A stretch of DNA of 32,905 nt, taken from IMG/VR virus record IMGVR_UViG_3300045988_085840, one strand, 5' to 3'. A model generated the notes under the pieces. It searched no databases. It was given only the letters and a program-made list of their open reading frames with translations, and was not told where the DNA came from. Each line of letters begins with the position of its first letter. The first letter of the stretch is position 1. Both the position numbers and the translations under genes were made by a program. The stretch is from a virus. Shown here piece after piece: positions 1,359-32,905 of the stretch.

Positions 1359-1372
1359 GAGAGGCGGCACGT

Positions 1373-1552
1373 ATGACAGAAAAAGAGGCGCTACAAGCAC
1401 TTACAGGAACACGAGACGACTATAACGACTACGCAAGAGCTTTAAATATCGCAATACGGGTATTAAGGGAACACGTAGCCGAGATAGATAAAAAGAGCCA
1501 GAACCAACGGAGAGAAAGAGAGGCAGACCATGAAAGTAATAAGCATTATTAA
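1373..1552 (+). CDS. Small hypothetical protein (59 aa)
   Basis: The ATG is preceded by RBS agagagg. The ORF fills the gap between the VRR-NUC gene and parA and overlaps the parA start by 23 nt. It is below the ORF-track length cutoff. Confidence 0.4.
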   Translation: MTEKEALQALTGTRDDYNDYARALNIAIRVLREHVAEIDKKSQNQRREREADHESNKHY

Positions 1553-2333: not shown

Positions 2334-2337
2334 AACT

Positions 2338-5758: not shown

Positions 5759-6112
5759 ATGGCAGGAAAGAAAGAGTACACAAAAGAAGAGAAAATTAAG
5801 AAAGAAAAAACCAGACTTAAAGGCATTTTTAAGAACCTCGACGAAAACAAAAAGAAACTTGTTACGCCGCTTATCGAAAAGGCTGCCTTTATGTCTGTCG
5901 AGCTCGATATATTGCAGGATAGTATACAGAAAAACGGCTGGACGTCGGAGTATCAGAACGGCGCGAACCAGTGGGGCGAAAAGCGCAGCGCAGAGGCAGA
6001 CACCTATATAGCGTTAAGCAAAAACTATACGGCAGTTATAAAGCAATTAACCGAGCTTGTACCAGCAGCAGAACGTAAGAAAAGCAAGTTAGCCCTGCTG
6101 CGAGAGGAATAG
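5759..6112 (+). CDS. terS: Terminase small subunit (P27-family-like)
   Basis: 117 aa, Lys-rich N-terminus, located directly upstream of terL. The size and sequence style fit the P27 small-terminase family. Confidence 0.7.
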   Translation: MAGKKEYTKEEKIKKEKTRLKGIFKNLDENKKKLVTPLIEKAAFMSVELDILQDSIQKNGWTSEYQNGANQWGEKRSAEADTYIALSKNYTAVIKQLTELVPAAERKKSKLALLREE

Positions 6113-20245: not shown

Positions 20246-20260
20246 AAAGAGAGGCGTAAT

Positions 20261-20416
20261 ATGGCAACAGCAAAAGAAGAAAACAGGCGCGACAACTTAA
20301 TTATACCAACGGGCGACGAACCCAAAACAGAAGAGCAGCCGACAAACACTACAGAGAGTATGCAGTTATTAACAACAGAGGCACTAGCAGCTATGCAGAC
20401 GGCTATAAGGGGGTAA
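20261..20416 (+). CDS. Small hypothetical protein (51 aa)
   Basis: ATG with RBS agagagg. It fills the gap after the Tal gene and is below the ORF-track cutoff. Confidence 0.45.
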   Translation: MATAKEENRRDNLIIPTGDEPKTEEQPTNTTESMQLLTTEALAAMQTAIRG

Positions 20417-20422
20417 AAGAAA

Positions 20423-20659
20423 ATGCCACAGGAAGAAAAGCAGGAAACAAAAGAAACATTACAGGAAGAGCAACAGGCAGAACCAAAAGCGCCGACAATT
20501 AGCGCAGAGCTGCTTACAGCCGCCCGCGGAGATATGACACTTGCAATACTGGAAGTACAGAGAGCCTACGGGCTGCCAGCGTACATTACAGACGTAATAG
20601 TAAGCGCCTGCCTGTCCGATATAAGGGACTGCGCAAATAAGGAGCTTATAAGCAAATAA
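20423..20659 (+). CDS. Hypothetical protein (78 aa)
   Basis: ORF with RBS aaggggg, lying within the tail-fiber block. Confidence 0.55.
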   Translation: MPQEEKQETKETLQEEQQAEPKAPTISAELLTAARGDMTLAILEVQRAYGLPAYITDVIVSACLSDIRDCANKELISK

Positions 20660-20678
20660 GCGAAAGGAGTAATTAACA

Positions 20679-21521
20679 ATGGCTATTGTGAACACACAGA
20701 GCATAAAAGTACCGATAGACGGCGCGCCGCCGTTTGGGTACATCATAGCCAAGCAGGGCGAAATATCAAGCCGACAAGTAGAGGTAACACTACTACAGAA
20801 CGACGTAGTATATACTATACCGAGCGGAGTAAAAGCGCGTGTAAAATACTATAAGCCAGACGGCAACAAGGTAATAAACGACTGCACAATAAGCAATAAC
20901 AAAGTAATAGTAACATACACGCAGCAGATGTTAGCGGCAGCAGGCACAGGCTTTGCGGAAATACAGTTATACAACGGCTCTAGCGTACTGGTAAGTGCGA
21001 CATATTATACTAAAATCGCAGAGAGTGTATATACGGACGATATAGAGAGCACGGACGAGAGCACGAGCTTAACAAAATTAATTATAGAGACAGAACAGGC
21101 AAGGGACAGCGCACAGGCAGCAAGAACGGCAACCGAAAAAGCTACAGACAATGCCAACACAGCTACAAGCAACGCAAACGCGGCTACGAGCAACGCCACG
21201 AACGCAGCAAACGCAGCCAATAAAGCAGCAACAGCAGCAAATAACGCAGCAAGCGCAGCAGACACAGCGAAAAAAGCAGCCGACGAAGCAACCGCAAACA
21301 CAAAGAGAGAAACAGAAAACGCGAAAAACGCCACGAGCGCAGCAAACGGGGCAGCAGGAAACGCTAACACGGCAACCACAAACGCAAACAACGCAGCCAA
21401 CGCGGCGAAAGCAGCGGCAAAGACAGCACAGGACGCAGCAGCAGCAGTCTACACCGACAGGAACTACAATTTGCTTGTAAGCAGCGACGGCGCAGTAACA
21501 TTTATGTATAACGAGCAGTAA
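20679..21521 (+). CDS. BppU-like baseplate/tail fiber protein with Ala/Asn/Thr-rich shaft
   Basis: 280 aa. The N-terminal ~120 aa (IKVPIDG...RQVEVTLLQN...VKYYKPDGN...AEIQLYNG) resemble the BppU_N Ig-like domain. The C-terminal half is low complexity (ATDNANTATSNANAATSNATNAANAANKAATAANNAASAAD...). Confidence 0.55.
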   Translation: MAIVNTQSIKVPIDGAPPFGYIIAKQGEISSRQVEVTLLQNDVVYTIPSGVKARVKYYKPDGNKVINDCTISNNKVIVTYTQQMLAAAGTGFAEIQLYNGSSVLVSATYYTKIAESVYTDDIESTDESTSLTKLIIETEQARDSAQAARTATEKATDNANTATSNANAATSNATNAANAANKAATAANNAASAADTAKKAADEATANTKRETENAKNATSAANGAAGNANTATTNANNAANAAKAAAKTAQDAAAAVYTDRNYNLLVSSDGAVTFMYNEQ

Positions 21522-21536
21522 GAAAGAGAGGCAATA

Positions 21537-22598
21537 ATGGCAGTACAAAGCATTGATTTACCACGCGATACAACTATGAAAGACATAGCGGCGAGCCTGC
21601 GAGCGATTGCAGGCTTTACAGCAGCAGACCTCGTTACTATGAAACAGGTAAAGGCTATCGTAGAGGGTAAAAAAGAAAAAGAAGTATTTACAGTAGGCGA
21701 CCAGATTACAGTACCTTGGACGGATAAGGCAACAAATGTAACATACGCGGCAGTTATGGACGTCGTACATTTTGGAGACGTAGAGCTCAAGGACGGCGAA
21801 ACCACAAACGCTATGTTTTTACAATGGCATTACTGTACGCCGTTCGGGGTGCAGTATGACGCGCCAGAGGCAGAGGTAGCAACAGAGGCAACCTTTAGCG
21901 CAGATTACAATTATTACACAAAAAACAGCGACGGCAGCTTTAGCCTTGCGACTGTAACGACAGGCGGCGCTATCCCTGCGGGCACAACATATTACCACAG
22001 TGCTATTAAAGACACGAGCGGCAATATCTGTAGATATAGTTATAATCGTTGGAGCCATAGCGCTATGAGACAGTGGCTTAACAGCAAGGCGGGAGTAAAT
22101 GCTTGGTGGACGGCACAGCATAAGGGCGACGTTAAGCCCGCGGAGCTTACGACAAAGGCAGGCTTTTTAACAGGGTTCGACGACGACTTTTTAAGCTGCT
22201 TAACCCCTATCAAAATTGTAACAGTACCGAACACCATAAGCGAGCCAGACAAGAACACAGCAACAGAGATTACATACGATAAAATCTTTTTACCGAGTAT
22301 GGAACAAATGTATTGCGCGCCACAGGCAAGCGGCGAGGGCGACTACTGGGAATACTGGAAGAGAGCCAGCGGGCGCACAACACCTTGCGCACAATGGCAG
22401 ACATACCCAGAAATGATTACATATGCTATAGAAAATCACAATTCAGCGCAGTACGTCCGCTTGCGTAGCGCTTATCGTGGCAACTCGTGCGATACGTGGT
22501 ACGTTGACTCGAGCGGCAGCGTCAGCAACTACGGCGCGTACAACTCTATGCGCTGCGCGCCCGCTTGTGCAATTACGGGGGCACCCGTAGCAAAATAA
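21537..22598 (+). CDS. DGR target protein 1 (putative receptor-binding protein, C-type-lectin/DUF1566-like variable C-terminus)
   Basis: 353 aa directly after the fiber gene. The C-terminus ...RSAYRGNSCDTWYVDSSGSVSNYGAYNSMRCAPACAI corresponds to the TR-encoded RSANRGNSYNTWYVNSSGNVNNNNANNSMRCAPDC. This is the DUF1566/CLec-type VR style. Confidence 0.9.
   Translation: MAVQSIDLPRDTTMKDIAASLRAIAGFTAADLVTMKQVKAIVEGKKEKEVFTVGDQITVPWTDKATNVTYAAVMDVVHFGDVELKDGETTNAMFLQWHYCTPFGVQYDAPEAEVATEATFSADYNYYTKNSDGSFSLATVTTGGAIPAGTTYYHSAIKDTSGNICRYSYNRWSHSAMRQWLNSKAGVNAWWTAQHKGDVKPAELTTKAGFLTGFDDDFLSCLTPIKIVTVPNTISEPDKNTATEITYDKIFLPSMEQMYCAPQASGEGDYWEYWKRASGRTTPCAQWQTYPEMITYAIENHNSAQYVRLRSAYRGNSCDTWYVDSSGSVSNYGAYNSMRCAPACAITGAPVAK
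22443..22569 (+). repeat. DGR variable repeat 1 (VR1)
   Basis: Aligns base-for-base with TR 23133-23259 (offset 690). There are 14 mismatches at TR adenines (12 within the core 22447-22569) and one non-A mismatch, VR 22505 t versus TR 23195 g. Confidence 0.92.
22550..22590 (+). promoter_or_regulatory. IMH-like element plus adjacent hairpin at the 3' end of VR1
   Basis: gcgctgcgcgcccgcttgtgcaat (22550-22573) is identical to 32710-32733 in VR2, whereas TR has gcgctgcgcgcccgattgtgttat. It is followed by a hairpin, acggg-ggca-cccgt (22575-22588), extendable by t74-a89. Confidence 0.7.
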
Positions 22599-22605
22599 CG
22601 CTAAT

Positions 22606-22629
22606 GCCCTGCCGACGCCTCGGCGGGGC
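22606..22629 (+). terminator. GC-rich hairpin downstream of target gene 1 (terminator and/or DGR target-recognition structure)
   Basis: gccctgccga-cgcc-tcggcggggc forms a 10-bp stem (one G-U pair) with a 4-nt loop. No T-run follows. The hairpin after VR2 has a similar sequence. Confidence 0.5.
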
Positions 22630-22674
22630 TATCAAAGCGGAAAACGAAAATATAAAAGAAAGGACAAGCGCGAC

Positions 22675-23091
22675 GTGTCAGTAAACGAGAGCGAAAGAGG
22701 TAAAGGAAAATTTGACGTACTTATAAAGGCGAACGACTTAGCGGTATATACAATAAGAATTACAAAGAACCCTAAAATATTTCTGCCAGAGTATCAGACG
22801 GCATTAACAAATGACATCATACACACGGCAAAAGAAATATTTACGAAAGCGTGGACAGCAAACAATATAAGAGTAGGCGACGAGCCGCGTAACTGGCTCG
22901 AGCGTAAAAAGCTACAGCAAGAGGCAGCCAGAGAGTGCAATAACTTACTCGCATTTATACAAATGGCTAAGCCTCTATACCACTTAACAAGCAAAAGAGT
23001 TAAGTACTGGGGACAAAAGACAATAGAAGTACGCCAAGCATTGAGAGACTGGAACGCAGGAGACACAAAGAGATACGGAAAACTAGAATAG
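22675..23091 (+). CDS. avd: Accessory variability determinant (Avd-like four-helix-bundle protein)
   Basis: 138 aa, basic, predicted helical, with a GTG start. It sits between the target gene and TR, ending about 40 nt before TR, as bavd does in Bordetella phage BPP-1. Confidence 0.7.
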   Translation: MSVNESERGKGKFDVLIKANDLAVYTIRITKNPKIFLPEYQTALTNDIIHTAKEIFTKAWTANNIRVGDEPRNWLERKKLQQEAARECNNLLAFIQMAKPLYHLTSKRVKYWGQKTIEVRQALRDWNAGDTKRYGKLE

Positions 23092-23132
23092 ATAGCAGCG
23101 CCGCAAGGCGATACTATAAAAGGGTTGTAGGC

Positions 23133-23259
23133 TAAACGCAGAACGTCCGCTTGCGTAGCGCTAATCGTGGCAACTCGTACAATACGTGGTACGTGAACTC
23201 GAGCGGCAACGTCAACAACAACAACGCGAACAACTCTATGCGCTGCGCGCCCGATTGTG
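23133..23259 (+). repeat. DGR template repeat (TR)
   Basis: Noncoding copy of the VRs. Read in the VR frame it contains a TAA at 23133-23135 and 12 AAY codons, including (AAC)4. It holds about 32 adenines between 23137 and 23259. It lies upstream of the RT. Confidence 0.92.
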
Positions 23260-23411
23260 TTATACAATTAGTCACACGGCAGCCCCGTAGGAGCTGCGCA
23301 CTATATTTTAATTGCACAAGGAGCCGAACACCCAGCCGCAAGGCTAAACAACGCCGAGGCGATACAAACAGCTTGCGAGCTGCGCGTTATACACGTCGCG
23401 GGACTTATAAA

Positions 23412-24467
23412 ATGAATGACGATATTAAAGAGGATATCGAAGAGAATATTATAGGCTTTGACGCCCTCTATAGCTCAATGGAGAAATGCAGAAAAGGCGT
23501 TATCTGGAAAGATAGCGTAGCACATTACTACTTAAACGGGATAGAGGAAACACTTAAGCTAGAGGAGCAGCTTAAGACGGGCACATACAAAGAGAGAAAG
23601 CCCGTACAGTTTACAATAATGGCGCCAAAGAAAAGAGAAATAGTTAGCATAGCTTTTAGAGATAGAGTATATCAGAGAAGTTTAAACGATAATGCGATAT
23701 ATCCGCAAATGACAAAGGGTTTTATAAATACTAACGTAGCCTGTCAGAAAGGAAAAGGCACAGACTTAGCCAGAGAGACACTTAAAAAGTACTTAAGGGC
23801 TATGTATAGGAAGTACGGCAAGAATTTTAACGTATTGCAATGCGACATACACGGCTATTATCCAAATATGCAGCACGAGACAGCACGCCAGACCTTTAGA
23901 AAAGGATTAGAGCCGCATATATACCAAAGAGCCGACCGAGTACTTACAAACCAGTACGCGGGAGAGATTGGCTATAACCCTGGTTCGCAAATGATACAAA
24001 TAGCGGGAATATCAGTTTTAAGCCCGATAGACCATTTTATAAAAGAGCGATTGCACATAAAGTACTATATACGATATATGGACGACTTTATACTACTACA
24101 CGAAAGCGCGCAGTACTTAGAATACTGCAAGCAGGAGATAGACAAGCACTTACGCGTTATGGGCTTTGAGTTTAACCCGAAGAAAACACACGTATATAGC
24201 GTAGGTAAGTGTATACCATTTTTAGGCTTTAACTTTAAGCTGGACGACAAAGGCAAAGTAATAATGCTACTTAAATCGGACAACGTAAAAAGAGAGCGCA
24301 AAAAGCTACAAAGGCTTGTTAATAAATGCAAGCGCGGCGAGATAACAAAAGAGAAAGTAAACGTATGTTATGCAGGCTGGCGGGTGCACGCAGAAAAAGG
24401 CGACAGCACGCACTTACTCGACAGAATGGATAAATACTATAAAGACCTATGGAAAGGGGCGAAATAA
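23412..24467 (+). CDS. DGR reverse transcriptase
   Basis: 351 aa from the ATG at 23412. It has the RT motif C YIRYMDDFILL and IGYNPGSQMIQ, which resembles the DGR-clade (I/L)GxxxSQ motif. It is immediately downstream of TR. The ORF-track start at 23151 runs through TR and is rejected. Confidence 0.9.
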   Translation: MNDDIKEDIEENIIGFDALYSSMEKCRKGVIWKDSVAHYYLNGIEETLKLEEQLKTGTYKERKPVQFTIMAPKKREIVSIAFRDRVYQRSLNDNAIYPQMTKGFINTNVACQKGKGTDLARETLKKYLRAMYRKYGKNFNVLQCDIHGYYPNMQHETARQTFRKGLEPHIYQRADRVLTNQYAGEIGYNPGSQMIQIAGISVLSPIDHFIKERLHIKYYIRYMDDFILLHESAQYLEYCKQEIDKHLRVMGFEFNPKKTHVYSVGKCIPFLGFNFKLDDKGKVIMLLKSDNVKRERKKLQRLVNKCKRGEITKEKVNVCYAGWRVHAEKGDSTHLLDRMDKYYKDLWKGAK

Positions 24468-24649
24468 TGATTTTTGAGAAGTTAAAAACCAGCGTTAAAG
24501 AGCAGCGAGAAAATGAGCGCTTAAAAGCAACAGTACAGGAGCAGGCGGCACTACTCGAGTATGTAGCAACTATGGCAGATATTGACTTACCAACGCTGGC
24601 GGCAGAGGACACAGAGCATACGGAAAGCGAGGCGGCAGAGAATGAGTAA
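24467..24649 (+). CDS. Hypothetical protein (60 aa)
   Basis: The ATG overlaps the RT stop by 1 nt, with RBS aagggg 7 nt upstream. The C-terminus is acidic. Confidence 0.5.
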   Translation: MIFEKLKTSVKEQRENERLKATVQEQAALLEYVATMADIDLPTLAAEDTEHTESEAAENE

Positions 24650-24803
24650 AGCGGCAAAGAGATACAAGAGCTATTACGTAGCAGGCTGGTATAACGAGGA
24701 AATGCTTAAAAACCTCGTAGGCAAGGGGAAATTAACACCAGAAGAGTACAAGGAAATCACAGGCGACGACTACACAGAAAAAGAGGACGACGCCGAAGCA
24801 TAA
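24642..24803 (+). CDS. xkdX: XkdX-family phage protein
   Basis: 53 aa. YYVAGWYNEEMLKNLVGKGKLTPEEYKEITG matches the XkdX family pattern (W...V.KG.IT.EEY..IT). It typically lies just before the holin in Firmicutes phages. Confidence 0.7.
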   Translation: MSKAAKRYKSYYVAGWYNEEMLKNLVGKGKLTPEEYKEITGDDYTEKEDDAEA

Positions 24804-24868
24804 GAGATTAACAAAAGAGTTGCACGAAAGAAAAAATAAAAGGCGCGGCAGCGCGGAAAGGCGAAAAG

Positions 24869-25285
24869 ATGAAAGTAAAAATTTGTGCAACTATTGGAGC
24901 GCTCGGCGGGGCTATTGCTGCTTTGCTGGGCGGCTGGACTACATCACTTGCAACACTCGTAGCTTTTATGATTATTGATTATATTAGCGGGGTAATTGTA
25001 GCGGGAGTATTCCACAAGAGTAAAAAGACAGAAAGCGGCAGCTTAAAGAGCGTAGCAGGAGCAAAGGGACTCTGCAAAAAGGGTATGATTTTGTTATGCG
25101 TCTTAATTGCATACCGCTTAGACCTTGCGACAGGAGTAGATTACATACGCGAGGCTGTAATTATCGGCTTTATGTCCAACGAGCTTATAAGCATTGTAGA
25201 AAATGCGGGGCTTATGGGCGTGCCTATGCCAGCAGCTATTACTAAGGCTATCGACGTATTACAGAGCAAAGGTAAGAAAGAGTAA
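24869..25285 (+). CDS. Holin (phage_holin_4 / TcdE-like family)
   Basis: 138 aa with several hydrophobic TM segments (ATIGALGGAIAALLGGW, LATLVAFMIIDYISGVIVAGVF, MILLCVLIAY). The conserved NELISIVENA motif is present. It is upstream of the endolysin. Confidence 0.8.
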   Translation: MKVKICATIGALGGAIAALLGGWTTSLATLVAFMIIDYISGVIVAGVFHKSKKTESGSLKSVAGAKGLCKKGMILLCVLIAYRLDLATGVDYIREAVIIGFMSNELISIVENAGLMGVPMPAAITKAIDVLQSKGKKE

Positions 25286-25368
25286 AAGCGATTAACTAAA
25301 GAAATATACAAAAGAGTTTTACCCAAGAAAGCTATTAACACGGGCTTATAAAGAAAGGTAAAACCATT

Positions 25369-26343
25369 ATGAACAAACAGGAATTTTTACAGTTAATCGT
25401 ACCACTTGCACAGGCAGAGGCAAAAAGAAGAAAGGACGCAGGCACAGGCTTTGTACTTCCTAGTGTGTGTATCGGACAGGCAGCGTTAGAAACAGGCTGG
25501 GGCGGCTCTAGCCTTATGACTAAGGCTAATGCGTTTTTCGGCATTAAGGCTACTACGAGCTGGGGCGGCAAAGTGTTTAGCTCAAAAACGCAGGAGTGCT
25601 ACGACAATGTTAATTACACAACTATTACAGCAGCATTTAGAACGTACGACACACCAGCAGACAGCGTAAAGGACTATTACGACCTCATTACAGGCAGCGC
25701 ACGTTACGCAGCCGCAGTAAATGTAACAGACGCACGTACAGCTATTACAGCTATTAAAGAGGGCGGCTACGCCACAAGCCCTACATACATAGCTAATGTT
25801 ATGGCGGTCATTGACAGTAACGACTTAACACAGTACGATAATGTGGTAACAGGAAATGCAGAGCCACAGCCAGCGGCAGGAAAGAGCGCCGAAGAACTGG
25901 CAGACGAGATTATTAACGGAGTATGGGGAAATAACCCAGAACGCCGCGAGAATATCACAGCCAAGTACGGCGCAGCGGCATACGAAGCAGCGCAGGCTAT
26001 CGTAAATCAGAGAGCAGGAGCGACAGAACCAGCAAAGCCAAGCAAGAGCACCGAAGAGCTGGCGCAGGAAATTATTAACGGAGTATGGGGCAGCAATCCA
26101 GAACGCCGCGAGAATATCACAGCGCAGTACGGAGAGGCAGCGTATGAGGCAGCACAGGCGCGCGTAAACGAGATTATGGGCGCAGGCTCTACCATTAAGA
26201 GCAAAACAGCCGAAGAGCTGGCAGACGAGATTATTAGAGGCGAGTGGGGCAGCAATCCAGAACGCCGCGAGAATATCACAGCCAAGTACGGGGCAGACGC
26301 TTACAGAGCAGCGCAGGCTATTGTAAACGAGCGTATGGGGTAA
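25369..26343 (+). CDS. Endolysin: N-terminal glucosaminidase domain plus three Cpl-7-type cell-wall-binding repeats
   Basis: 324 aa. IGQAALETGWGGS...FFGIK...YATSPTYI resembles the mannosyl-glycoprotein endo-beta-N-acetylglucosaminidase family. It is followed by three copies of AEELAxEIIxGxWGxNPERRENITAxYG..AY.AAQ..VN (CW_7 style). Confidence 0.85.
   Translation: MNKQEFLQLIVPLAQAEAKRRKDAGTGFVLPSVCIGQAALETGWGGSSLMTKANAFFGIKATTSWGGKVFSSKTQECYDNVNYTTITAAFRTYDTPADSVKDYYDLITGSARYAAAVNVTDARTAITAIKEGGYATSPTYIANVMAVIDSNDLTQYDNVVTGNAEPQPAAGKSAEELADEIINGVWGNNPERRENITAKYGAAAYEAAQAIVNQRAGATEPAKPSKSTEELAQEIINGVWGSNPERRENITAQYGEAAYEAAQARVNEIMGAGSTIKSKTAEELADEIIRGEWGSNPERRENITAKYGADAYRAAQAIVNERMG
25885..26340 (+). 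repeat. Three in-frame tandem repeats (162 and 159 bp periods) encoding Cpl-7 repeats
   Basis: Repeat anchors (g/a)ccgaaga start at 25888, 26050 and 26209. All three copies share an identical 26-bp core, ccagaacgccgcgagaatatcacagc. Confidence 0.85.
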
Positions 26344-26347
26344 GCGT

Positions 26348-26554
26348 ATGGCAGCTACAGTTATGGGAGAAATTGAAGCGCAGCAGATTATAACAGCAAA
26401 TGCAGCTTGCCAGATTGTAGGCGGCTGCGATTTGTGCCCGTTCTTTAAAGAGGACGTAGAGCGCACGAGAGAACGCGGAAAGTGTCAAGAGGCTATTAAC
26501 GCAGAGAGCGTTAGAGAGGCACTTATAACGCTGCGAGGACAGCTTAGCGAGTAA
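26348..26554 (+). CDS. Hypothetical Cys-containing small protein (68 aa)
   Basis: ORF with an RBS-like atgggg, immediately after the endolysin. No recognisable family. Confidence 0.5.
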   Translation: MAATVMGEIEAQQIITANAACQIVGGCDLCPFFKEDVERTRERGKCQEAINAESVREALITLRGQLSE

Positions 26555-26689
26555 GTACAGAATAGCACCGCTGCGGCTGGGTAATAGTCACGTAACACGC
26601 AAAAGGGCTTGTAAACCCAGTAAATAGAGGGGCTACAGTTTATATTGAGGAAGCTGCGGACAAGGGTAAATTCTAGGAAATCCAGTATT

Positions 26690-26780
26690 TACGCGGATAT
26701 GCGGAAGTATGGAAACCTACGGAAAAGTACAGGTAACTTACACGTAACTAGCGCGTAACTTACACACGTAACTTGCAAAA
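26690..26780. promoter_or_regulatory. Candidate attP arm region with phased direct repeats
   Basis: GTAAC occurs at 26733, 26744, 26755 and 26768 (11/11/13-bp spacing). GTAACTTACAC is repeated at 26733 and 26755. Upstream are 10-bp phased GGAA(A/G)nnTAC units (26701-26730). The region is noncoding and lies between the lysis genes and the 3' end of int. Confidence 0.4.
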
Positions 26781-26783
26781 TAT

Positions 26784-26826
26784 AAGAGGGCAGCAGGCGT
26801 ATAAAAACACCTGTAGCCCTCTTTTT
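26784..26826. terminator. Bidirectional hairpin terminator between the lysis module and integrase
   Basis: aagagggc (26784-26791) pairs with gccctctt (26816-26823), with an inner cagg/cctg pairing. A T-run follows on the + strand, and a T-rich tail follows on the - strand. Confidence 0.55.
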
Positions 26827-26849
26827 AATTGCTGCATATTTGCGGCAAA

Positions 26850-27911
26850 TTAGTATACTATCTTTTCTATCTCGTCGGCGAGCTCTTGCATACTTCTATG
26901 TGTGTATACCTTTTCTGTAATGTCTAATATCTCGTGCCCTACAATCAGCTTAAGTATATACTCATTCATATTTGCAGACTTGGCAGCGCTTATAAAAGTA
27001 TGGCGCGTGTCGTGCGGCTTGTGCGACATATTAAAGCGTTTGTTTATTTTCTTGAAGCGCCCGCGGTATTTATCGTATGTTAGGTGTGTGCCCTGCTGCC
27101 CGTTCTCATCATTAAACAGATAATCGCTACCCATAGCGACAGCTTTATTATAATTGGCTACGACCAGCTCATATATAGCGGAGTGTATCGGCACAACTCT
27201 ATTACGTCCTGCGTCAGTCTTAAGACCGCCAAACATAGTACGAGCCTCTAAGTCTATGTCGGCAATCTTTAATATTGCCAGCTCTTGCGGACGCCAGCCG
27301 CTATAAATTCCTATAAGCACCATATCGACAAAAGGAAAGCTCACATTTTCCCAGAGCGTTTGTATTTCCTCGGAACTAAACGGAATACGTACAATTTTAG
27401 GCTTGCCGCGCTTTACGCTTTCACATAATGCCGCGTAGTCCTTTTCTACAATGTCGTATTTAAGGCAGTACTTATACATTAAGTTATACATACTTTTCAT
27501 ACGCTGCTTAGTGCTATCGCCTACCTTGGCGTCGTGTATGGCGCCCTCTAAGTGGTTCGGGCGTATGTCACGCATACGCATATTGTGTAGTGGTTTAGAG
27601 TGATTAAAGGCAGCAACCCAAGAACGGCAAGAGCTGGGCGTAACCTTTACAAAGTGCTCTTTACTCCAACGCTCGTACACCTCGGCAAAGGTTATAGTAT
27701 TCGTTTCTATGTCGTACGGGTTTTGGTTGTAATTCATAAGAGCAGTTAAAGCCTCTTGCCTCGTCGGATAATATCCGATAGTTAAATATCGTTGCTTAGT
27801 CCTGCCTGTCTTCTCGTCAATCTCCCAACCTTTAGTTTTTCGTGCTATCCAAGGGTTACGGCGCTTACCGCCTTGCTTATATACGCTACCCATTCCATTA
27901 GCAAGTTTCAT
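26850..27911 (-). CDS. int: Tyrosine recombinase (phage integrase)
   Basis: About 353 aa on the - strand. The C-terminal catalytic region contains ...HDTRHTFIS...GH...YTH, an R..HxxR..Y-type signature. The ATG at 27911 (MKLANG) has better RBS spacing (gagg plus 9 nt) than the ORF-track start at 27926. Confidence 0.88.
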   Translation of the reverse strand: MKLANGMGSVYKQGGKRRNPWIARKTKGWEIDEKTGRTKQRYLTIGYYPTRQEALTALMNYNQNPYDIETNTITFAEVYERWSKEHFVKVTPSSCRSWVAAFNHSKPLHNMRMRDIRPNHLEGAIHDAKVGDSTKQRMKSMYNLMYKYCLKYDIVEKDYAALCESVKRGKPKIVRIPFSSEEIQTLWENVSFPFVDMVLIGIYSGWRPQELAILKIADIDLEARTMFGGLKTDAGRNRVVPIHSAIYELVVANYNKAVAMGSDYLFNDENGQQGTHLTYDKYRGRFKKINKRFNMSHKPHDTRHTFISAAKSANMNEYILKLIVGHEILDITEKVYTHRSMQELADEIEKIVY

Positions 27912-27961
27912 ATAGCATAACCTCACTTTCTTATATGTCGGCTTATTTTCTAAAAAAGGGT

Positions 27962-27994
27962 ATAAAAAATAAGCCTATCGGAAACCCTAGGCTT
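27962..27994 (-). terminator. Minus-strand hairpin plus T-run immediately upstream of int
   Basis: aagccta (27971-27977) pairs with taggctt (27988-27994). The + strand A-run at 27964-27969 is a T-run after the hairpin on the - strand. Confidence 0.35.
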
Positions 27995-27995
27995 A

Positions 27996-28004
27996 TGCTA
28001 TAAT
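27996..28004 (+). promoter_or_regulatory. Extended -10 promoter (TGcTATAAT)
   Basis: tgctataat at 27996-28004 matches the TGnTATAAT extended -10 consensus. No good -35 is seen. Confidence 0.4.
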
Positions 28005-28010
28005 AGTACT

Positions 28011-28100
28011 TGCGGGGTACATAACAAGCGAGCAGCCTTTAAGGTTCGTTAGTTGTGTGTCTATGTAGCCGCTCCTGCGCCAACAGGGGCGGCTATTTTT
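28011..28100 (+). ncRNA. Candidate ~85-90 nt small RNA (promoter-to-terminator unit with no ORF)
   Basis: It is bounded by the extended -10 at 27996-28004 and a strong terminator at 28066-28100. There is no start codon or ORF of meaningful length. The internal composition is G/T-rich (ggttcgttagttgtgtgtctatg), unlike coding regions. Confidence 0.35.
28066..28100 (+). terminator. Rho-independent terminator
   Basis: The 12-bp stem tagccgctcctg / caggggcggcta (one G-U pair) has the loop cgccaa and is followed by ttttt (28096-28100). Confidence 0.7.
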
Positions 28101-28182
28101 ATGTATTGAATTTTACAGATATTACCATAAGACATATGCGCAGCCGTCCAGTATAATAGATACTAAAAGAGAGGCTTACATA

Positions 28183-28371
28183 ATGACATATAACTTATGG
28201 CAGATACGAACAGCCAAGGGCTACAGCCTGCGGGAGCTGGAAGAGTTAAGCGGGGTAAGCAAGACCACAATAAACAATATTGAGAACGGAAAAGCAAACC
28301 CGACTATAGAAACCCTGCGCTTACTTGCAGCAGCCCTAGAAGTAGAGCTATTCGATTTACTAGAATTATAA
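28183..28371 (+). CDS. XRE-family helix-turn-helix protein (62 aa)
   Basis: LRELEELSGVSKTTINNIENGKANPTIETLRLLAAAL is a classic HTH_3/XRE motif. RBS is agagagg. Confidence 0.8.
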   Translation: MTYNLWQIRTAKGYSLRELEELSGVSKTTINNIENGKANPTIETLRLLAAALEVELFDLLEL

Positions 28372-28501
28372 TATTGCAAGTTACCGCTGCCAAGAGCTAC
28401 GGGGCATACGTCCGACATAATGGACAAAACAGCCGAAAGCCTTACATATCTTACCGACTAGCGTTATAATTGCCACATCACACAAGAAAGAGGGCGAGCT
28501 A

Positions 28502-28606
28502 GTGGATAAGCTACGGCGGCAGATACGCGAACTACTCGACAGCATAAGCGACGAGCACGTACTTAGAATAATATTACAATTCATACGAGGAATTAAAGGC
28601 AGCTAG
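28502..28606 (+). CDS. Possible 34-aa peptide gene
   Basis: The GTG start is preceded by aagaggg. The product is VDKLRRQIRELLDSISDEHVLRIILQFIRGIKGS. The ORF ends inside the terminator stem. It is very short, so the call is weak. Confidence 0.3.
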   Translation: MDKLRRQIRELLDSISDEHVLRIILQFIRGIKGS

Positions 28607-28624
28607 GCGACTAGCTGCTTTTTT
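28599..28624. terminator. Bidirectional terminator between the convergent + strand genes and the repressor gene
   Basis: Perfect 8-bp stem gcagctag-gcga-ctagctgc followed by tttttt on the + strand. The stem overlaps the stop codon of the - strand repressor gene. Confidence 0.75.
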
Positions 28625-28985
28625 CGTCGTCGCCTTTTATCTTATCAACAAATTTTTTAATAAGTTCCCACTCGGCGGGGGATAACTGCCCCAGAGCAAT
28701 AAACGTATTAAGTATAAACTCGTCGCCGCTGCCAAGAGCTGCCCCGACTATCTGCGCCGCCTTTTCTGCGCGGCTCATTTCCTCGAACATATCGCCAGAG
28801 CCAGTACGTAGCCATTCCTCATTAACTCCGAACTCACGGCAGATAGCAGTAACATTTTGATTAGTTACATTTACTACGCCACTCTCTATACGGCTAATGG
28901 CAGAACGGGTAACGCCGATACGCCCGCCGAAAGTTTCCATACTTAAACCTAGCGCTTTACGTATCTCTTTAACTCTTTCGTTCAT
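28611..28985 (-). CDS. CI-like phage repressor (XRE HTH N-terminal domain)
   Basis: 124 aa on the - strand. It has the HTH LGLSMETFGGRIGVTRSAISRIESG. It is divergent from the early operon across a promoter/operator region. RBS is aaaggag. Confidence 0.8.
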   Translation of the reverse strand: MNERVKEIRKALGLSMETFGGRIGVTRSAISRIESGVVNVTNQNVTAICREFGVNEEWLRTGSGDMFEEMSRAEKAAQIVGAALGSGDEFILNTFIALGQLSPAEWELIKKFVDKIKGDDEKSS

Positions 28986-29019
28986 ATATTTTTTACTCCT
29001 TTCCTAGATTTTCAACATC

Positions 29020-29048
29020 ATCATAACACCATAACGTAACATAAGCAA
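29020..29048 (-). promoter_or_regulatory. Repressor-gene promoter (PRM-like)
   Basis: On the - strand: TTGCTT (+ strand 29043-29048), a 17-nt spacer, then TATGAT (+ strand 29020-29025). It overlaps the operator-like repeat at 29034-29050. Confidence 0.5.
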
Positions 29049-29050
29049 CA
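29034..29050. promoter_or_regulatory. Operator-like 17-bp repeat, copy 1
   Basis: acgtaacataagcaaca, compared with acgtaatgtaagcaaca at 29097-29113 (15 of 17 identical). A third CGTAAC lies at 29076-29081 inside the promoter spacer. Confidence 0.5.
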
Positions 29051-29067
29051 AATTTTTATAAAAACTG

Positions 29068-29096
29068 TTGACAAACGTAACCCACGCAACTATAAT
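29068..29096 (+). promoter_or_regulatory. Early promoter (PR-like), perfect sigma-70/sigma-A consensus
   Basis: TTGACA (29068-29073), exactly 17 nt, then TATAAT (29091-29096), upstream of the early operon starting at 29163. Confidence 0.8.
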
Positions 29097-29113
29097 ACGT
29101 AATGTAAGCAACA
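29097..29113. promoter_or_regulatory. Operator-like 17-bp repeat, copy 2
   Basis: acgtaatgtaagcaaca lies immediately after the -10 hexamer and would occlude the transcription start. Confidence 0.5.
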
Positions 29114-29162
29114 TTACAACATCAAAATAGTACAAGCGGGGTACACGAAAGCGAGGCGAACA

Positions 29163-29408
29163 ATGGCGAGCGTAAGAGACGCAGAGGAAACACTTAACCT
29201 ACTAAAAGAATTTAGCGACGAGATACTCACAGAAGCAGAAAGAAAGGGGCTTTGCGAGCTTGTAACAGAGATTAACTTAAAGAGCTTTGACGAGGGCAAA
29301 GTAGTAGAGATATACAGGGAACAGTACGCAGAGGACGGCGAGCAATACGAAAAGTACTACTACAGCGACGGCACAAGCGTAAAGTGTTGGTTAGGGCTTA
29401 ACGACTAG
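29163..29408 (+). CDS. Early hypothetical protein (81 aa)
   Basis: First ORF of the early operon. RBS gcgagg, acidic product. Confidence 0.6.
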   Translation: MASVRDAEETLNLLKEFSDEILTEAERKGLCELVTEINLKSFDEGKVVEIYREQYAEDGEQYEKYYYSDGTSVKCWLGLND

Positions 29409-29417
29409 GGGGCAAGT

Positions 29418-29660
29418 ATGGTAAAAGATAAAGACGGCGTAGTTAAATACTGGGTACGCCCGCACGAGGTTACGTGTAATTATACAGAATATGAGCACGA
29501 CGTAGAATACGACAGATACTACAGGCTTAGGGAAAGCAGAGAGTACAAGAAACACGGCAAGGCAGTACGCGAGCGAATTACTAAAAAAGAATACTTAGCG
29601 ATAAAGAAGATAACGCAGGAATATATAGCACGCTGCAACAAAAGCAGCGCAGAGGAATAG
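29418..29660 (+). CDS. Early hypothetical protein (80 aa)
   Basis: ORF with RBS aggggg. Confidence 0.6.
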   Translation: MVKDKDGVVKYWVRPHEVTCNYTEYEHDVEYDRYYRLRESREYKKHGKAVRERITKKEYLAIKKITQEYIARCNKSSAEE

Positions 29661-29666
29661 CAGCAT

Positions 29667-29999
29667 ATGTATATGACACAAAGCGAGATAGTAGACCGAT
29701 ACGTAAGGCGCGGCACAAGCATTACTATACTGGCAGAGCTTAACGCCACGAGAGTAGACCAGATTAGGGAAATACTTACAGACGCAGGCGTAGAGCTGCC
29801 AGAGGCAAAGAAAACAAAGCAGCAGCGTATAGAGTGCTGCTACGACGCGCTGGACAATATAGAGCAGCGCATAAAGGAACACGTACAGGAACACAAGGCA
29901 AAAGACCATAAGCAGGAAGTATTAGAGCTGGAATACACAGCAGTAGTAGAGCTTATGCGGCAGTTATCGGACGAAAGAAAGGCAGGCGGCAGAAAATGA
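29667..29999 (+). CDS. Early hypothetical protein (110 aa)
   Basis: ORF with RBS agagga. Possible HTH-like segment GTSITILAELNATRVDQIREIL. Confidence 0.55.
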   Translation: MYMTQSEIVDRYVRRGTSITILAELNATRVDQIREILTDAGVELPEAKKTKQQRIECCYDALDNIEQRIKEHVQEHKAKDHKQEVLELEYTAVVELMRQLSDERKAGGRK

Positions 30000-30373
30000 A
30001 CAAAATACATACAATACAGGACGTTAAGCAGCGCATACACGAGCTTATACAGAAAGAAATAGCAAAGTGCAACAAAGAAATAGAAGAGTTTGAACACAAA
30101 ATAAGAGACAACGCAATAGTATACGGCGGGGGCGGCTGGTGCACACAGTTTGAGAAAGCAAAGAAACGCAGAGAGGACTTTATAGAAGAGCTGCAAGGCT
30201 TAGAACGCGCACAGGGCACAGCAGTAATACTCGACGAAATAAGCATATACTCGTATTCCTGCCCGACTTGCCAAATTAAAGTAATGCTTAATGGCGGCTA
30301 CGGCGAGACTGTAACGTGTCCAGTATGCGAGAGAAGAATATACAGAGCGAACGAACTAGAAGTGATGAAATAG
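29996..30373 (+). CDS. Early protein with C-terminal zinc ribbon (125 aa)
   Basis: ATGA overlap with the upstream gene. The CPTCQ...CPVCE pair of CxxC motifs lies at the C-terminus. Confidence 0.6.
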   Translation: MNKIHTIQDVKQRIHELIQKEIAKCNKEIEEFEHKIRDNAIVYGGGGWCTQFEKAKKRREDFIEELQGLERAQGTAVILDEISIYSYSCPTCQIKVMLNGGYGETVTCPVCERRIYRANELEVMK

Positions 30374-30469
30374 CACGCGGCAGCAGACAGGCTAAAGTAA
30401 ATAATCACTATATACAGCTTGACAGCTACGGACGTTTTAAGGACTAAGAAGAAAGAGAGGTAAAACAGT

Positions 30470-30634
30470 ATGCAGCAGACATTAGAGAGAACGAAAGAAC
30501 AGCAGAGTTTAGAAAATTTTAGCGAGCTTATGCAGGAAGTAGCAAAGCTGCCAGAGGACAAGCGTAATATTGTTGCGATTTACTCGCAGGGTGTACTTGC
30601 TATGGCACAGGCGCAGCAGAATACAGCGAGGTAA
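30470..30634 (+). CDS. Small hypothetical protein (54 aa)
   Basis: ATG with RBS agagagg 9 nt upstream. It fills the gap and is below the ORF-track cutoff. Confidence 0.5.
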   Translation: MQQTLERTKEQQSLENFSELMQEVAKLPEDKRNIVAIYSQGVLAMAQAQQNTAR

Positions 30635-30640
30635 CAAGAT

Positions 30641-30859
30641 ATGCAGGCAGTAAAGATTAAACCAGCAGAGGCAGCCGTTATTATGGGTTGCAGCCCGCAA
30701 TTTGTCCGCATAGGACTACAGCAGGGTAAGTTAGACATAGGCGACGCTATTAAAATGTCGTCGATATGGACATATAACATAAGCGCGGCTGCACTTGCCA
30801 GACGGCAGGGCGTAACAGTAGAAGAGTTAGAGGAAAAAATAAGGGAGCTGCGGAAATGA
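30641..30859 (+). CDS. Excisionase/MerR-like HTH DNA-binding protein (72 aa)
   Basis: IKPAEAAVIMGCSPQFVRIGLQQGKL resembles the HTH_17 / excisionase-type winged helix. Confidence 0.45.
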   Translation: MQAVKIKPAEAAVIMGCSPQFVRIGLQQGKLDIGDAIKMSSIWTYNISAAALARRQGVTVEELEEKIRELRK

Positions 30860-31044
30860 ACAGGCGACAAAGAAAGAAGAAAGACGCAAAAGACTTAATA
30901 CTTATATTTAACTGCGAAATGGTATGTAAACAAGAAACATACGCGAATTTAAAGCAAACAATACAGGCGCAGCTAAACAAGGGCAATGTAATAGTATTGC
31001 CGCCGTATCTGCGATTAGAGGGAATAGCAGGGTTAAAAGAATAA
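30856..31044 (+). CDS. Hypothetical protein (62 aa)
   Basis: ATGA-coupled ORF with a basic N-terminus. Confidence 0.5.
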   Translation: MNRRQRKKKDAKDLILIFNCEMVCKQETYANLKQTIQAQLNKGNVIVLPPYLRLEGIAGLKE

Positions 31045-31068
31045 AGATAATGAAAGAGAGATAAGAAA

Positions 31069-31362
31069 ATGCAGCAAGTAACACTAAGCGCACTTGCGGC
31101 GCTTATAAGCTCGTCAGAACGCGCTAGGGTAATAAAAAACGGCGTCGTAGTGTTTGCAGACTGGGGCTATTACTTAAAAGAGCACTACCAAGAAAAAGGA
31201 TTTACAGGCGACGAGATAGTAACAGACTTTAGGGCGCACTTGGACGTAGCACATAAAGACTGGCACAAGCTGGGACTTATGCCACCACTCGACCAAGAGA
31301 GCGCGCCGCAGTACATAGCGGGCGATATGCGTATAGATATGTATTACGACATTTACATATAA
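31069..31362 (+). CDS. Hypothetical protein (97 aa)
   Basis: ORF with RBS agagag. Confidence 0.55.
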   Translation: MQQVTLSALAALISSSERARVIKNGVVVFADWGYYLKEHYQEKGFTGDEIVTDFRAHLDVAHKDWHKLGLMPPLDQESAPQYIAGDMRIDMYYDIYI

Positions 31363-31482
31363 ACGCCTCTAGCTTAAAGGTAAAGCAGCAGCCGCAAGGC
31401 TGTATATGCAACTTTCGAGGGTTGCGGGGCGTATCTGTCCAATAAAACGGACACTAAAAACAGAAGAAAGGAGAGCGGAAAC

Positions 31483-32088
31483 GTGGAGACAGACAACGCA
31501 GTAGCATTACAGGGCATATTAAAGGAGCTGCGCAAGGTAGATAACATTAACACGCTGCCATTTAACGGATACGAGCTTACAGTTGTTACCGAACGACGCA
31601 GCGGAGCACTTGACGAGGCTATAGTATACGTGCAGGGCGATAATGTAGACAGTATCGGAGTAAATACGCCAGTTATGATACTTGGCAGCTTACAGGCTTA
31701 TAAGAATTTTATAACAGGCAAGGTACTTGTATACGTACTGGCAGAGACAGCGCAGCAGATTACGGGCGAGCACTGGGACTACGAAAACGAGGTACAGTTA
31801 AGCGGAGCACTCGGCAGCGGCATTACATACCGCGAGACGCCACTAGGCAAACGCATAAGCGATATAAGCGTACTGGTAGAGAACAGACTAAAAGACCTAC
31901 ACGGCTGCTATATACCCTGTATCGCTTGGAACGATACAGCAGCTATGGTTAAAGAATGGCACGAGGGCGAGCGCGTAACCTTAAAAGGCAAGCTACAGAG
32001 CAGAGCTTACACTAAACGCGTAGGCGAGCAGCAGGAAGAGCAAAGAACAGCGTACGAGGTATCTATATACGCGATAGGAAAAGAGTAA
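31483..32088 (+). CDS. OB-fold ssDNA-binding-like protein (possibly tandem OB)
   Basis: 201 aa with a GTG start after aaaggag. The C-terminal half, NEVQLSGAL...YRETPLGKRISDISVLVEN...YIPCIAWNDTAAMVKEWHEGERVTLKGKLQSRAY...RTAYEVSIYAI, follows the SSB OB-fold pattern. It has no acidic tail. Confidence 0.45.
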   Translation: METDNAVALQGILKELRKVDNINTLPFNGYELTVVTERRSGALDEAIVYVQGDNVDSIGVNTPVMILGSLQAYKNFITGKVLVYVLAETAQQITGEHWDYENEVQLSGALGSGITYRETPLGKRISDISVLVENRLKDLHGCYIPCIAWNDTAAMVKEWHEGERVTLKGKLQSRAYTKRVGEQQEEQRTAYEVSIYAIGKE

Positions 32089-32107
32089 AAGAAAGGAAAG
32101 CGGAAAA

Positions 32108-32740
32108 ATGCAGATAAAAAAGACAATATTAACAGAGAGTGTTACGCTCGAAGAGCTTAGAAAGATTATAAGAGAGGGACGAGCTGCGGAAGTACTGGCA
32201 GTAGGCGACCAGATTTACATTGATTTTGACGGCGCAGCAGTATCATACGACGTAATAGGCATAGACGCAGACACACCAGCAGCCGAAGAGCTTAAGCATA
32301 CAGTTACCATACAGGCGCACGAACTAATAGAAGAACGCCCGTTTGATACAAAGGGACGTTACGGCTCTAACGACTGGGAAACAAGCGAGCTTAGAGAGTA
32401 CCTTAACAGCGAGATATACGCGGCACGCTGCGCAGAGCTGGCTAAGTATGCAATACCAGTTGCTAAAATGAACACAAACGGCAGAAAGACAGTAGATACG
32501 TTTTTCTTGTTATCTGTAGACGAATACGACGCCAAAGACACACTATACGAGTATTACAAAGACAAGCTATACAGAGCAGCCAAGCACGCAAAGGACGACT
32601 ACAACGACTGGCATAGAACGCGTAGCGCTCATCGTGGCACCTCGTACAATACGTGGTACGTGTACTCGAGCGGCAGCGTCTACAGCGGCTACGGCGCGGA
32701 CTACTCTGTGCGCTGCGCGCCCGCTTGTGCAATAGGATAA
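32108..32740 (+). CDS. DGR target protein 2 (shorter paralog of target 1 with variable C-terminus)
   Basis: 210 aa. It shares EV(F/L)xVGDQI, W..S.(M/L)R.(W/Y)LNS and (I/F)FL(P/L)S motifs with target 1. Its C-terminus, RSAHRGTSYNTWYVYSSGSVYSGYGADYSVRCAPACAIG, is encoded by VR2. Confidence 0.88.
   Translation: MQIKKTILTESVTLEELRKIIREGRAAEVLAVGDQIYIDFDGAAVSYDVIGIDADTPAAEELKHTVTIQAHELIEERPFDTKGRYGSNDWETSELREYLNSEIYAARCAELAKYAIPVAKMNTNGRKTVDTFFLLSVDEYDAKDTLYEYYKDKLYRAAKHAKDDYNDWHRTRSAHRGTSYNTWYVYSSGSVYSGYGADYSVRCAPACAIG
32621..32729 (+). repeat. DGR variable repeat 2 (VR2), remote from the cassette
   Basis: Aligns to TR 23154-23259. All 13 substitutions fall at TR adenines. One extra codon lies inside the region templated by the (AAC)4 run. 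It has the same IMH-like 3' end as VR1. Confidence 0.88.
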
Positions 32741-32752
32741 ATATAAATAATA

Positions 32753-32774
32753 CGCCCTGTACGCTTACAGGGCG
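32753..32774 (+). terminator. Hairpin downstream of VR2 (terminator and/or DGR target-recognition structure)
   Basis: cgccctgta-cgct-tacagggcg forms a perfect 9-bp stem with a 4-nt loop, 19 nt after the IMH-like element. It shares GCCCTG, a CGCY loop and a trailing CTAT with the hairpin at 22606-22629. Confidence 0.55.
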
Positions 32775-32797
32775 CTATATAAAAAGACATAATAAAA

Positions 32798-32827
32798 GCG
32801 CCTACGATACTGCAATATCATAGGCGC
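32798..32827 (+). other. Second inverted repeat in the target2-rep intergenic region
   Basis: gcgcctacgata-ctgcaa-tatcataggcgc forms a 12-bp stem with one mismatch. Its function is unknown; it could be a terminator or an origin-related structure. Confidence 0.35.
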
Positions 32828-32850
32828 TAAGCTATAGCCGAAGCGTATAG

Positions 32851-32905
32851 CATTACCACATTTATATTATACGCTGCATACGGCAAAAAGGCAAGGAAAA
32901 ACAAC
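32851..32905. repeat. Terminal direct repeat, copy 2 (circular-closure overlap)
   Basis: Identical to bases 1-55. The unique genome length is therefore about 32,850 bp. Confidence 0.95.

Follow-up and report, generated by a model that had tools for sequence, protein, structure and literature searches.

A lectin-like gene in the replication module of a Lachnospira eligens phage as a probable second target of a single diversity-generating retroelement

Results

A remote gene ends in a second variable region

The window, by which we mean the whole stretch of 32,905 nucleotides (nt) of virus DNA analysed here (IMG/VR record IMGVR_UViG_3300045988_085840), holds the genome of a temperate, siphovirus-type phage of Lachnospira eligens, an abundant gut commensal. 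It carries one diversity-generating retroelement (DGR), in which genes for an Avd accessory protein and a reverse transcriptase (RT), with a template repeat (TR) between them, follow a target gene of the tail-fibre module (target 1). Far from this cassette, directly downstream of the gene for a single-stranded DNA-binding protein (SSB), lies an open reading frame (ORF), here called target 2, whose 3' end is homologous to the TR (Table 1). The repeat occurs three times in the genome, as a single TR and as one variable region (VR) in each target gene, VR1 and VR2. TR and VR2 are 9,467 nt apart from start to start, in agreement with the distance of about 9.4 kb given by an earlier, sequence-only reading of this DNA.

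That reading had placed VR2 at 32621–32729, and the recomputed bounds, 32620–32733, bear out a VR at the end of the gene. Its statement that all 13 substitutions in VR2 fall on TR adenines likewise survived re-alignment: adenines make up 29 of the 104 aligned TR positions, and a 13/13 coincidence has a hypergeometric P of 5.5e-9. The substitutions of that alignment therefore stand, but it had missed the insertion of one codon, in frame, opposite the (AAC)4 tract of the TR. VR2 is ~88% identical in DNA to the non-coding TR, and its homology to the TR sets in at 32620, 16 nt further 3' than that of VR1. VR1 itself differs from the TR at 13 positions, 12 of which are adenines; the single non-adenine change, G23195T, lies beside a mutated adenine.

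Both VRs end in the same GC-rich 14-mer and the same initiation of mutagenic homing (IMH) sequence, which are invariant among DGR-positive orthologues of target 2 (pi = 0), and a search of the window with the pattern of these two elements returned no third VR. A hairpin follows each VR. The one behind VR2 has a predicted DNA folding energy of −10.7 kcal/mol (z = −3.3 against shuffled sequences) and is conserved in 17 relatives. The DGR of phage BPP-1 requires such a structure, with a GC-rich stem of 7–10 bp and a loop of 4 nt, 4–34 bp downstream of the VR (PMC3240598); the stem behind VR2 has 9 bp and a distance of 20 nt, and that behind VR1 has 10 bp and a distance of 32 nt, but neither loop fits the GRNA consensus given for phage DGRs. 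By analogy, we favour the VR2 hairpin as a candidate DGR target-recognition element, which falls short of proof.

The GenBank record MT835491.1, a divergent phage (L145), has the same 22-nt inverted repeat, CCCGGCACCCACGGATGCCGGG, after both its VR1 and its VR2 (5775–5800 and 20625–20650); the three elements VR, IMH and hairpin thus act like a single transferable target unit.

We also considered the VR2 hairpin as a plain terminator and rejected this, as no T-run follows it on the sense strand and it is terminator-like on the minus strand only, where no gene lies. A second and longer inverted repeat, of 14 pairs (32797–32828), shares with it the 260-nt gap between target 2 and the Rep gene (32741–143). 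Both gap hairpins look like terminators only on this gene-free minus strand, and the region may be an origin or nick site for a Rep of the rolling-circle replication (RCR) type.

Table 1 Position of the features discussed, in coordinates of the window
Feature	Position	Strand	Remarks
Target gene 2	32108–32740	+	210 aa; ATG ORF; stand-alone DUF6273 / C-type-lectin-like
VR2	32620–32733	+	114 nt; 3' end of target 2; homologous to TR 23153–23263
Five-codon NNC tract	32681–32695	+	TAC AGC GGC TAC GGC; opposite AAC x4 of the TR (23214–23225); one codon more, in frame
GC-rich 14-mer	32710–32723	+	GCGCTGCGCGCCCG; common to VR1 and VR2
IMH	32724–32733	+	CTTGTGCAAT; same in VR1 and VR2; TR has IMH* ATTGTGTTAT
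Hairpin/cruciform after VR2	32753–32774	+	CGCCCTGTA-CGCT-TACAGGGCG; 20 nt 3' of VR2; 9-bp stem, 4-nt loop
Target gene 1	21537–22598	+	353 aa; DUF6273; tail-fibre module
VR1	22447–22573	+	In target 1
Hairpin after VR1	22606–22629	+	Loop CGCC; 10-bp stem; 32 nt 3' of VR1
Avd accessory protein	22675–23091	+	phrog_3206 'Avd protein of DGR', E = 2.5e-7
TR	23137–23263	+	VR2 counterpart 23153–23263; (AAC)4 23214–23225; IMH* 23254–23263
DGR reverse transcriptase	23412–24467	+	Listed ORF 23151–24467, probable ATG 23412; YMDD and GSQ motif
SSB gene	31483–32088	+	PF00436, E = 1e-11; directly upstream of target 2
Rep	144–902	+	
Terminase	6120–7772	+	
Tape measure	13886–16783	+	
Tail protein	17531–20245	+	904 aa
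Fibre-like gene	20679–21521	+	
Integrase	26850–27926	−	
Repressor	28611–28985	−	
Sigma-70 consensus	29068–29096		The only perfect one

VR2 is hypervariable at adenine-templated codons

Variation was examined in an orthologue set of 21 IMG/VR loci and one bacterial genome, 81–92% identical, and in a protein database that holds more than 110 separate 90% clusters of the 209–211-aa target-2 protein, 111 sequences of which were aligned. In this alignment, codons with an AAC or AAT template (residues 175, 178, 181, 186, 190, 192–196, 198 and 199) reach entropies of 2.1–3.3 bits, and those with a TAC, ACG or ATG template 0.8–1.6 bits; VR codons without adenine generally stay below 1 bit, and a few sites outside the VR lie at 1.2–1.8 bits. 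The residues found at the variable sites (Y, S, N, G, D, T, H, C and others) follow the NNC expectation. Hundreds of distinct VR2 alleles occur in proteins that are otherwise more than 90% identical, and in two of the 90% clusters VR2 differs in each member listed. The sequence-only reading had named a monomorphic VR2 as the mark of a relic; among genomes, VR2 is highly polymorphic at exactly the adenine-derived codons.

Two codons depart from this rule. Ser173 and Ser188, whose TR codons (AGC) contain an adenine, show 0.15 and 0.46 bits in the 111 alleles, next to neighbouring AAY codons at ~3 bits, which points to strong selection filtering the DGR output at structural positions.

A set of five DGR-positive genomes (the window, 053377, 097558, 017734 and sample 3300029740) gave the same picture at the nucleotide level, with polymorphism at 16 of 21 adenine sites versus 2 of 70 other sites (Fisher p = 1e-11) and a nucleotide diversity of 0.156 for VR2 as against 0.047 for the remainder of the gene, the IMH being invariant (0). 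The two non-adenine polymorphisms are the first base of homology and a synonymous C-to-T change that is also present in the TR and VR1 of a contig from the same sample; mismatches to the TR at non-adenine positions number 0–1 in these VR2s. The synonymous change is a TR single-nucleotide polymorphism (SNP), GCGTAGTGCT, found in the TR and VR1 of three contigs, in the VR2 of a contig that shares its sample with one of those three, and in two further VR2s with unrelated content at the adenine sites, a pattern to be expected if VR2 were periodically rewritten from the TR.

A change from CGTGG to CATGG at the equivalent of TR position 23167 recurs independently in VR1 (L025/L123) and in VR2 (L008 and L018). 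The available cognate TR keeps G at 23167, and the change may mark a non-adenine error hotspot or C-to-T deamination.

Relatives that lost the cassette keep both targets

Avd, TR and RT are absent from four relatives that are complete prophages (L110, L111, L113 and L114), all of which retain both VR-bearing targets. The deletion breakpoints, in window coordinates, are 22700–24393, 22595–24421, 22829–24335 and 22619–24442, and because all four differ, we conclude that the cassette was lost independently and recurrently. RT scraps remain in one of them, L114, within the 22619–24442 deletion. In VR2, these four relatives carry 1 to 7 non-adenine changes; one cassette-less VR2 allele is identical in three independent sources, including an L. 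eligens isolate, as would be expected of a frozen VR. Two further contigs, assigned to neither the DGR-positive nor the cassette-less group, have 8 and 14 non-adenine changes in VR2.

A fifth relative (L008/L117, IMGVR_UViG_3300029872_000337) has neither target 1 nor a DGR and an intact target 2. Its last 7.1 kb, following the tail protein, have no nucleotide similarity to the window and contain no fibre gene, holin or lysin of the window type, the distal tail and lysis module having been swapped. Outside the VR, dN/dS of target 2 is ~0.23; target 2 is a functional gene in its own right.

The additional codon in the AAC tract

Across the 111 clusters, the VR2 tract opposite the AAC repeats is 4, 5 or 6 codons long in 76, 31 and 4 cases, respectively, and no shorter allele occurs. 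All related TRs read out carry (AAC)4 and none (AAC)5. A 5-codon VR1 stands beside an (AAC)4 TR in L118 (3300000286_000175) and in MT835491.1, and another is present in L110, whose TR is lost. Because VR1 copies beside (AAC)4 TRs also have it, the additional codon is most simply a homing product rather than a sign of decay, and on the same grounds we discarded it as evidence for a relic.

Tract lengths that change by insertion only suggest insertion-biased RT slippage or selection against shorter loops. Length differences between TR and VR were reported for ~7% of DGRs by Wu et al. in 2018, mostly in multiples of 3 and adjacent to AAC, and were ascribed to RT slippage (PMC5758913). Those cases came from single genomes, whereas lengths of 4, 5 and 6 codons are seen here over 111 alleles, and the present polymorphism affects both targets, beside a constant (AAC)4 TR, and consists of insertions alone.

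Target 2 is a stripped-down paralogue of target 1

Both targets match the Pfam family DUF6273 (PF19789), target 2 over residues 72–202 with 47 bits against a gathering cut-off of 23.5 (E = 3.4e-12). An hhalign comparison aligned residues 12–208 of target 2 with residues 33–346 of the target-1 family (probability 99.8%, E = 1e-27), and the motifs EVxxVGDQI, W..S..R..LNS and FL(P/L)S, from which the sequence-only reading had called target 2 a shorter paralogue, were all recovered. Target 2 corresponds to target 1 minus a conserved N-terminal extension of ~32 residues and four internal insertions, and by these alignments it is a full-length, stripped-down paralogue, with ~31% protein identity outside the VR.

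An AlphaFold2 prediction from a shallow orthologue alignment was unusable, with a predicted local distance difference test score (pLDDT) of 42.6; after addition of target-1 family sequences, the model reached a pLDDT of 77 and a predicted TM-score (pTM) of 0.81, with only 60–70 pLDDT in the VR region. The model agrees with DUF6273 and C-lectin-like folds and places the VR in a beta-hairpin region at the C-terminus. Its best fold match in the PDB is the T. ramosa IgA peptidase 9qa6 (E = 6.7e-5), the N-terminal domain of which is annotated as DUF6273 (PMC12402451); the C-domain of Legionella Lcl and C-type lectins gave weak, non-significant matches (E >= 0.1). These relatives emerged from the fold search only, as a profile search of the PDB sequences with the shallow alignment yielded no match even at E = 10. 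Matches in BFVD are gut-phage DUF6273 proteins (E down to 1e-15), some of them small and stand-alone and some fused to fibre, receptor-binding protein (RBP) or Ig domains. About 11–13 residues of target 2 can be randomised, and its eleven AAY codons alone allow 15^11, or ~9e12, variants. Inspection of the translation revealed no signal peptide and no transmembrane segment.

The replication-module placement is conserved

Target 2 starts 19 nt after the SSB stop codon, and a promoter scan found no promoter-like site between the two genes. On its 3' side, across the junction of the circle, follow Rep, VRR-NUC, ParA and ParB, in accord with the sequence-only reading, which had put the gene outside the structural module. 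Located away from the tail module and consisting of a single domain without the N-terminal extension of target 1, target 2 has neither tail-fibre placement nor an attachment domain.

Similarly, MT835491.1, in which the RT is 59% and target 2 is 49% identical, has a large target, Avd, TR and RT together and a small target 14.2 kb away, between its primase and SSB genes; substitutions in the small-target VR relative to its own TR fall on adenines in 13 of 13 cases. A third lineage (L021, 52% identical) has the small target between primase and ParB genes, with SSB nearby. Found in three lineages, placement among replication and partition genes is a conserved trait and not an accident of one genome.

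The retroelement cassette and target 1

The RT matches PF00078 (RVT_1, E = 9e-12) and phrog_1423 (E = 8.5e-74). Against NCBIfam, which has no DGR-specific model, it gave only sub-threshold group II and Drt matches, and the same database returned nothing informative for target 1, target 2 or Avd. Target 1 lies directly after the tail-fibre gene, and its homologues fuse DUF6273 to BppU_N or fibre domains. The gene just 5' of it, which is fibre-like, contains a 9-nt-periodic, Ala/Asn-rich repeat at 21145–21438.

Discussion

Our data are best explained if the one DGR of this phage still services target 2 as a genuine second target, a reading to which we give a probability of about 0.88. Sequence comparison supplies the repeat relationship, the adenine specificity, the IMH and hairpin common to both VRs, the hypervariability in the population and the fidelity to the cognate TR, and these support the proposal of the sequence-only reading that one TR/RT pair serves two loci. 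For the biochemistry and the part played by the hairpin, we infer a course of events from the BPP-1 paradigm (PMC3240598; PMC5758913). TR RNA would be reverse-transcribed by the Avd/RT complex, with random nucleotides incorporated opposite template adenines, and the cDNA would replace the homologous stretch in either target, recognised through the GC-rich element, the IMH and the downstream hairpin with its 4-nt loop. The tract replaced in VR2 would run from the IMH up to ~32620, where TR homology stops, 16 nt short of the VR1 boundary. RT slippage on (AAC)4 would occasionally add one or two NNC codons, of which the window VR2 would have received one. The presumed product is a 210-aa single-domain, C-type-lectin-like binding protein, and the mode as a whole would be ordinary mutagenic retrohoming, acting in trans and serving two targets.

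With regard to function, the sequence-only reading had offered either an alternative receptor-binding head or a non-virion protein. We lean towards ligand binding outside the cell, with target 2 as an accessory or alternative adhesin or as a protein released by lysis, because it is homologous over its full length to the tail-associated target 1 and because many DUF6273 domains occur in a fibre or RBP context. Structural neighbours with a functional name are annotated as tail fibre or receptor-binding proteins, and published views on second DUF6273 targets also favour receptor-binding or adhesin roles (PMC10743442; 10.1101/2024.10.15.618418). The position of target 2, its missing N-terminal extension and its retention without target 1 nevertheless leave room for a role outside the virion. 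Target 2 could then be an early-expressed, intracellular variable binder directed, for example, at competing phages or at defence proteins of the host, which we hold to be doubtful. It does follow SSB at short distance, lacks a promoter-like site of its own, belongs to an early/replication block whose genes all point one way, and has similar company (primase, ParB and SSB genes) in two lineages with ~50% identical orthologues, but gene position is no proof of expression timing. The translation has no signal peptide or transmembrane segment, but virion proteins likewise have no signal peptides. The absence of the ~32-aa extension that target 1 conserves, and an intact target 2 in the relative that has had its distal tail module exchanged along with target 1 and the DGR, would also suit an intracellular binder; full-length homology to a tail-module protein argues against it. 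A more specific version, in which target 2 is an early-expressed, cytoplasmic, DGR-diversified binder and a stable member of the replication/partition module, strikes us as slightly more doubtful yet. If true, target 2 would be a programmable binder whose partners lie inside the cell, such as defence proteins of the host or rival phages.

Several observations weigh against a VR2 that is currently serviced. The window VR2 exceeds the present TR by one codon, which, taken alone, would equally fit a copy of an older (AAC)5 TR. Only 10 nt of TR homology lie 5' of the first variable adenine in VR2, and the hairpin loops CGCT and CGCC fall outside the GRNA consensus of phage DGRs (PMC3240598). The link between the TR SNP and VR2 holds at the level of the sample, through two contigs (L002 and L024) that do not overlap, and not on one molecule; a metagenome scan with GCGTAGTGCTNNTCGTGGC, an unspecific pattern, listed 120 loci, three of them related and none with TR and VR2 on one contig. 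Finally, ongoing diversification within one population is deduced from variation between genomes and not from individual reads.

These points would suit a relic, that is, a VR2 once diversified, perhaps from an (AAC)5 TR, and no longer homed, so that its variation is inherited, and the allele shared by three cassette-less sources indicates that VR2 variants can persist frozen. We nonetheless judge a relic to be highly unlikely. The related TRs read out are uniformly (AAC)4, with 5-codon VR1s adjoining such TRs; non-adenine divergence from the TR is 0–1 in DGR-positive genomes and 1–7 in cassette-less ones; the IMH and hairpin of VR2 are intact; the TR SNP is mirrored in VR2 at the sample level; and distinct alleles number in the hundreds among otherwise >90% identical proteins.

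It is barely conceivable that ordinary duplication or gene conversion between the targets, which are paralogous over their whole length and nearly identical at the 3' end including the IMH, produced the similarity of VR2 to TR and VR1, since the paralogues share only ~31% protein identity outside the VR and the VR itself is ~88% identical in DNA to a non-coding TR, VR1, VR2 and TR differ essentially at TR adenines only, which conversion or drift would not yield, and the adenine-restricted pattern recurs in MT835491.1.

Parts of this arrangement have precedents. It is common for a target to lie apart from the cassette in the same prophage, up to 50 kb from the RT, and action in trans has been described (Wu et al. 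2018, PMC5758913). The closest case is Toutatisvirus, a Faecalibacterium phage with a second DUF6273 target 17,480 nt from the TR (bioRxiv 10.1101/2024.10.15.618418). As in the present phage, one Avd-TR-RT cassette is combined with two DUF6273 targets, one near and one remote, and in both the VR occupies the C-terminal end of the domain; the remote target is of unknown function, and some DGR-less relatives keep both. Toutatisvirus belongs to another lineage and host, however, and its adjacent target is an Ig-domain 'tentaclin'/Hoc-like protein, whereas here it is a 353-aa DUF6273 protein encoded after the tail-fibre gene, the two targets are full-length paralogues, and the remote one lies in the replication/partition module.

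Pairs of a large and a small DUF6273 target are also known from nd4/nd12 gut phages and from the Faecalibacterium prophages Lelie and CP11 (PMC10743442; PMC11792537). These too are C-lectin-like pairs of unknown function diversified by one TR; their small member consists of one globular domain and carries the VR at the 3' end. In nd4/nd12, by contrast, the DGR cassette is described as including both targets, the large one carrying Ig domains and a VR close to its 5' end, whereas the small target of the present phage is 9.5 kb away in another functional module. BPP-1 (mtd-avd-TR-brt) shares the adenine-specific transfer from TR to VR, the GC-rich element with IMH, and IMH* in the TR (PMC3240598), and its cassette can act in trans, as we propose here. 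It differs in that its only target, Mtd, is adjacent and belongs to a different family, and in having a GRNA hairpin loop instead of CGCT or CGCC.

The literature thus already contains second DUF6273 targets at a distance from the cassette, indels in AAC tracts and loss of the cassette with retention of targets, and the current picture of DGRs is unchanged. Modestly new are the conserved replication-module placement and the documented recurrent loss of the cassette. This small temperate phage offers a clean, well-populated natural case of one DGR whose two targets, lectin-like paralogues, belong to different functional modules, and it comes with built-in controls in the form of DGR-positive genomes, four independent cassette deletions and one relative without target 1. 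It is a convenient system for the rate of VR decay after cassette loss, the frequency of AAC-tract slippage and the purpose of a second, non-tail target.

Genome context and minor observations

The genome is a 32,850-bp circle, bases 1–55 of the window being identical to 32851–32905 (a terminal redundancy of 55 nt), and a prophage relative was found in Lachnospira eligens BIOML-A1. A megablast search of 20000–32850 against GenBank phages gave no match, and with tblastn only two distant, unannotated records matched. The plus strand begins with Rep, VRR-NUC, ParA and ParB, followed by a late regulator, HNH, terminase, portal, protease and major head protein genes, and then by the tail genes (tape measure, 904-aa tail protein, fibre-like gene and target 1), the DGR cassette, holin and endolysin. 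The integrase and repressor genes are on the minus strand; beyond them come the only perfect sigma-70 consensus, the early genes, SSB and target 2.

The contigs of relatives begin at the integrase and end near 26554–26675, so these relatives are integrated forms. The breaks between 26554–26675 and 26850 (window 26555–26849) place the attachment site just 3' of the integrase gene. Besides the integrase, the window has a plasmid-like module at 144–3624, with RCR-type Rep, VRR-NUC, ParA and a ParB fused to DUF3850/ASCH; in a temperate phage, a Rep/Par module together with an integrase raises the question of episomal maintenance.

Internal repeats are found in two further genes: the tape-measure gene has three 120-nt repeats at 15749–16108, and the C-terminus of the endolysin is encoded by three tandem repeats of ~160 nt (25879–26339) that are probably wall-binding.

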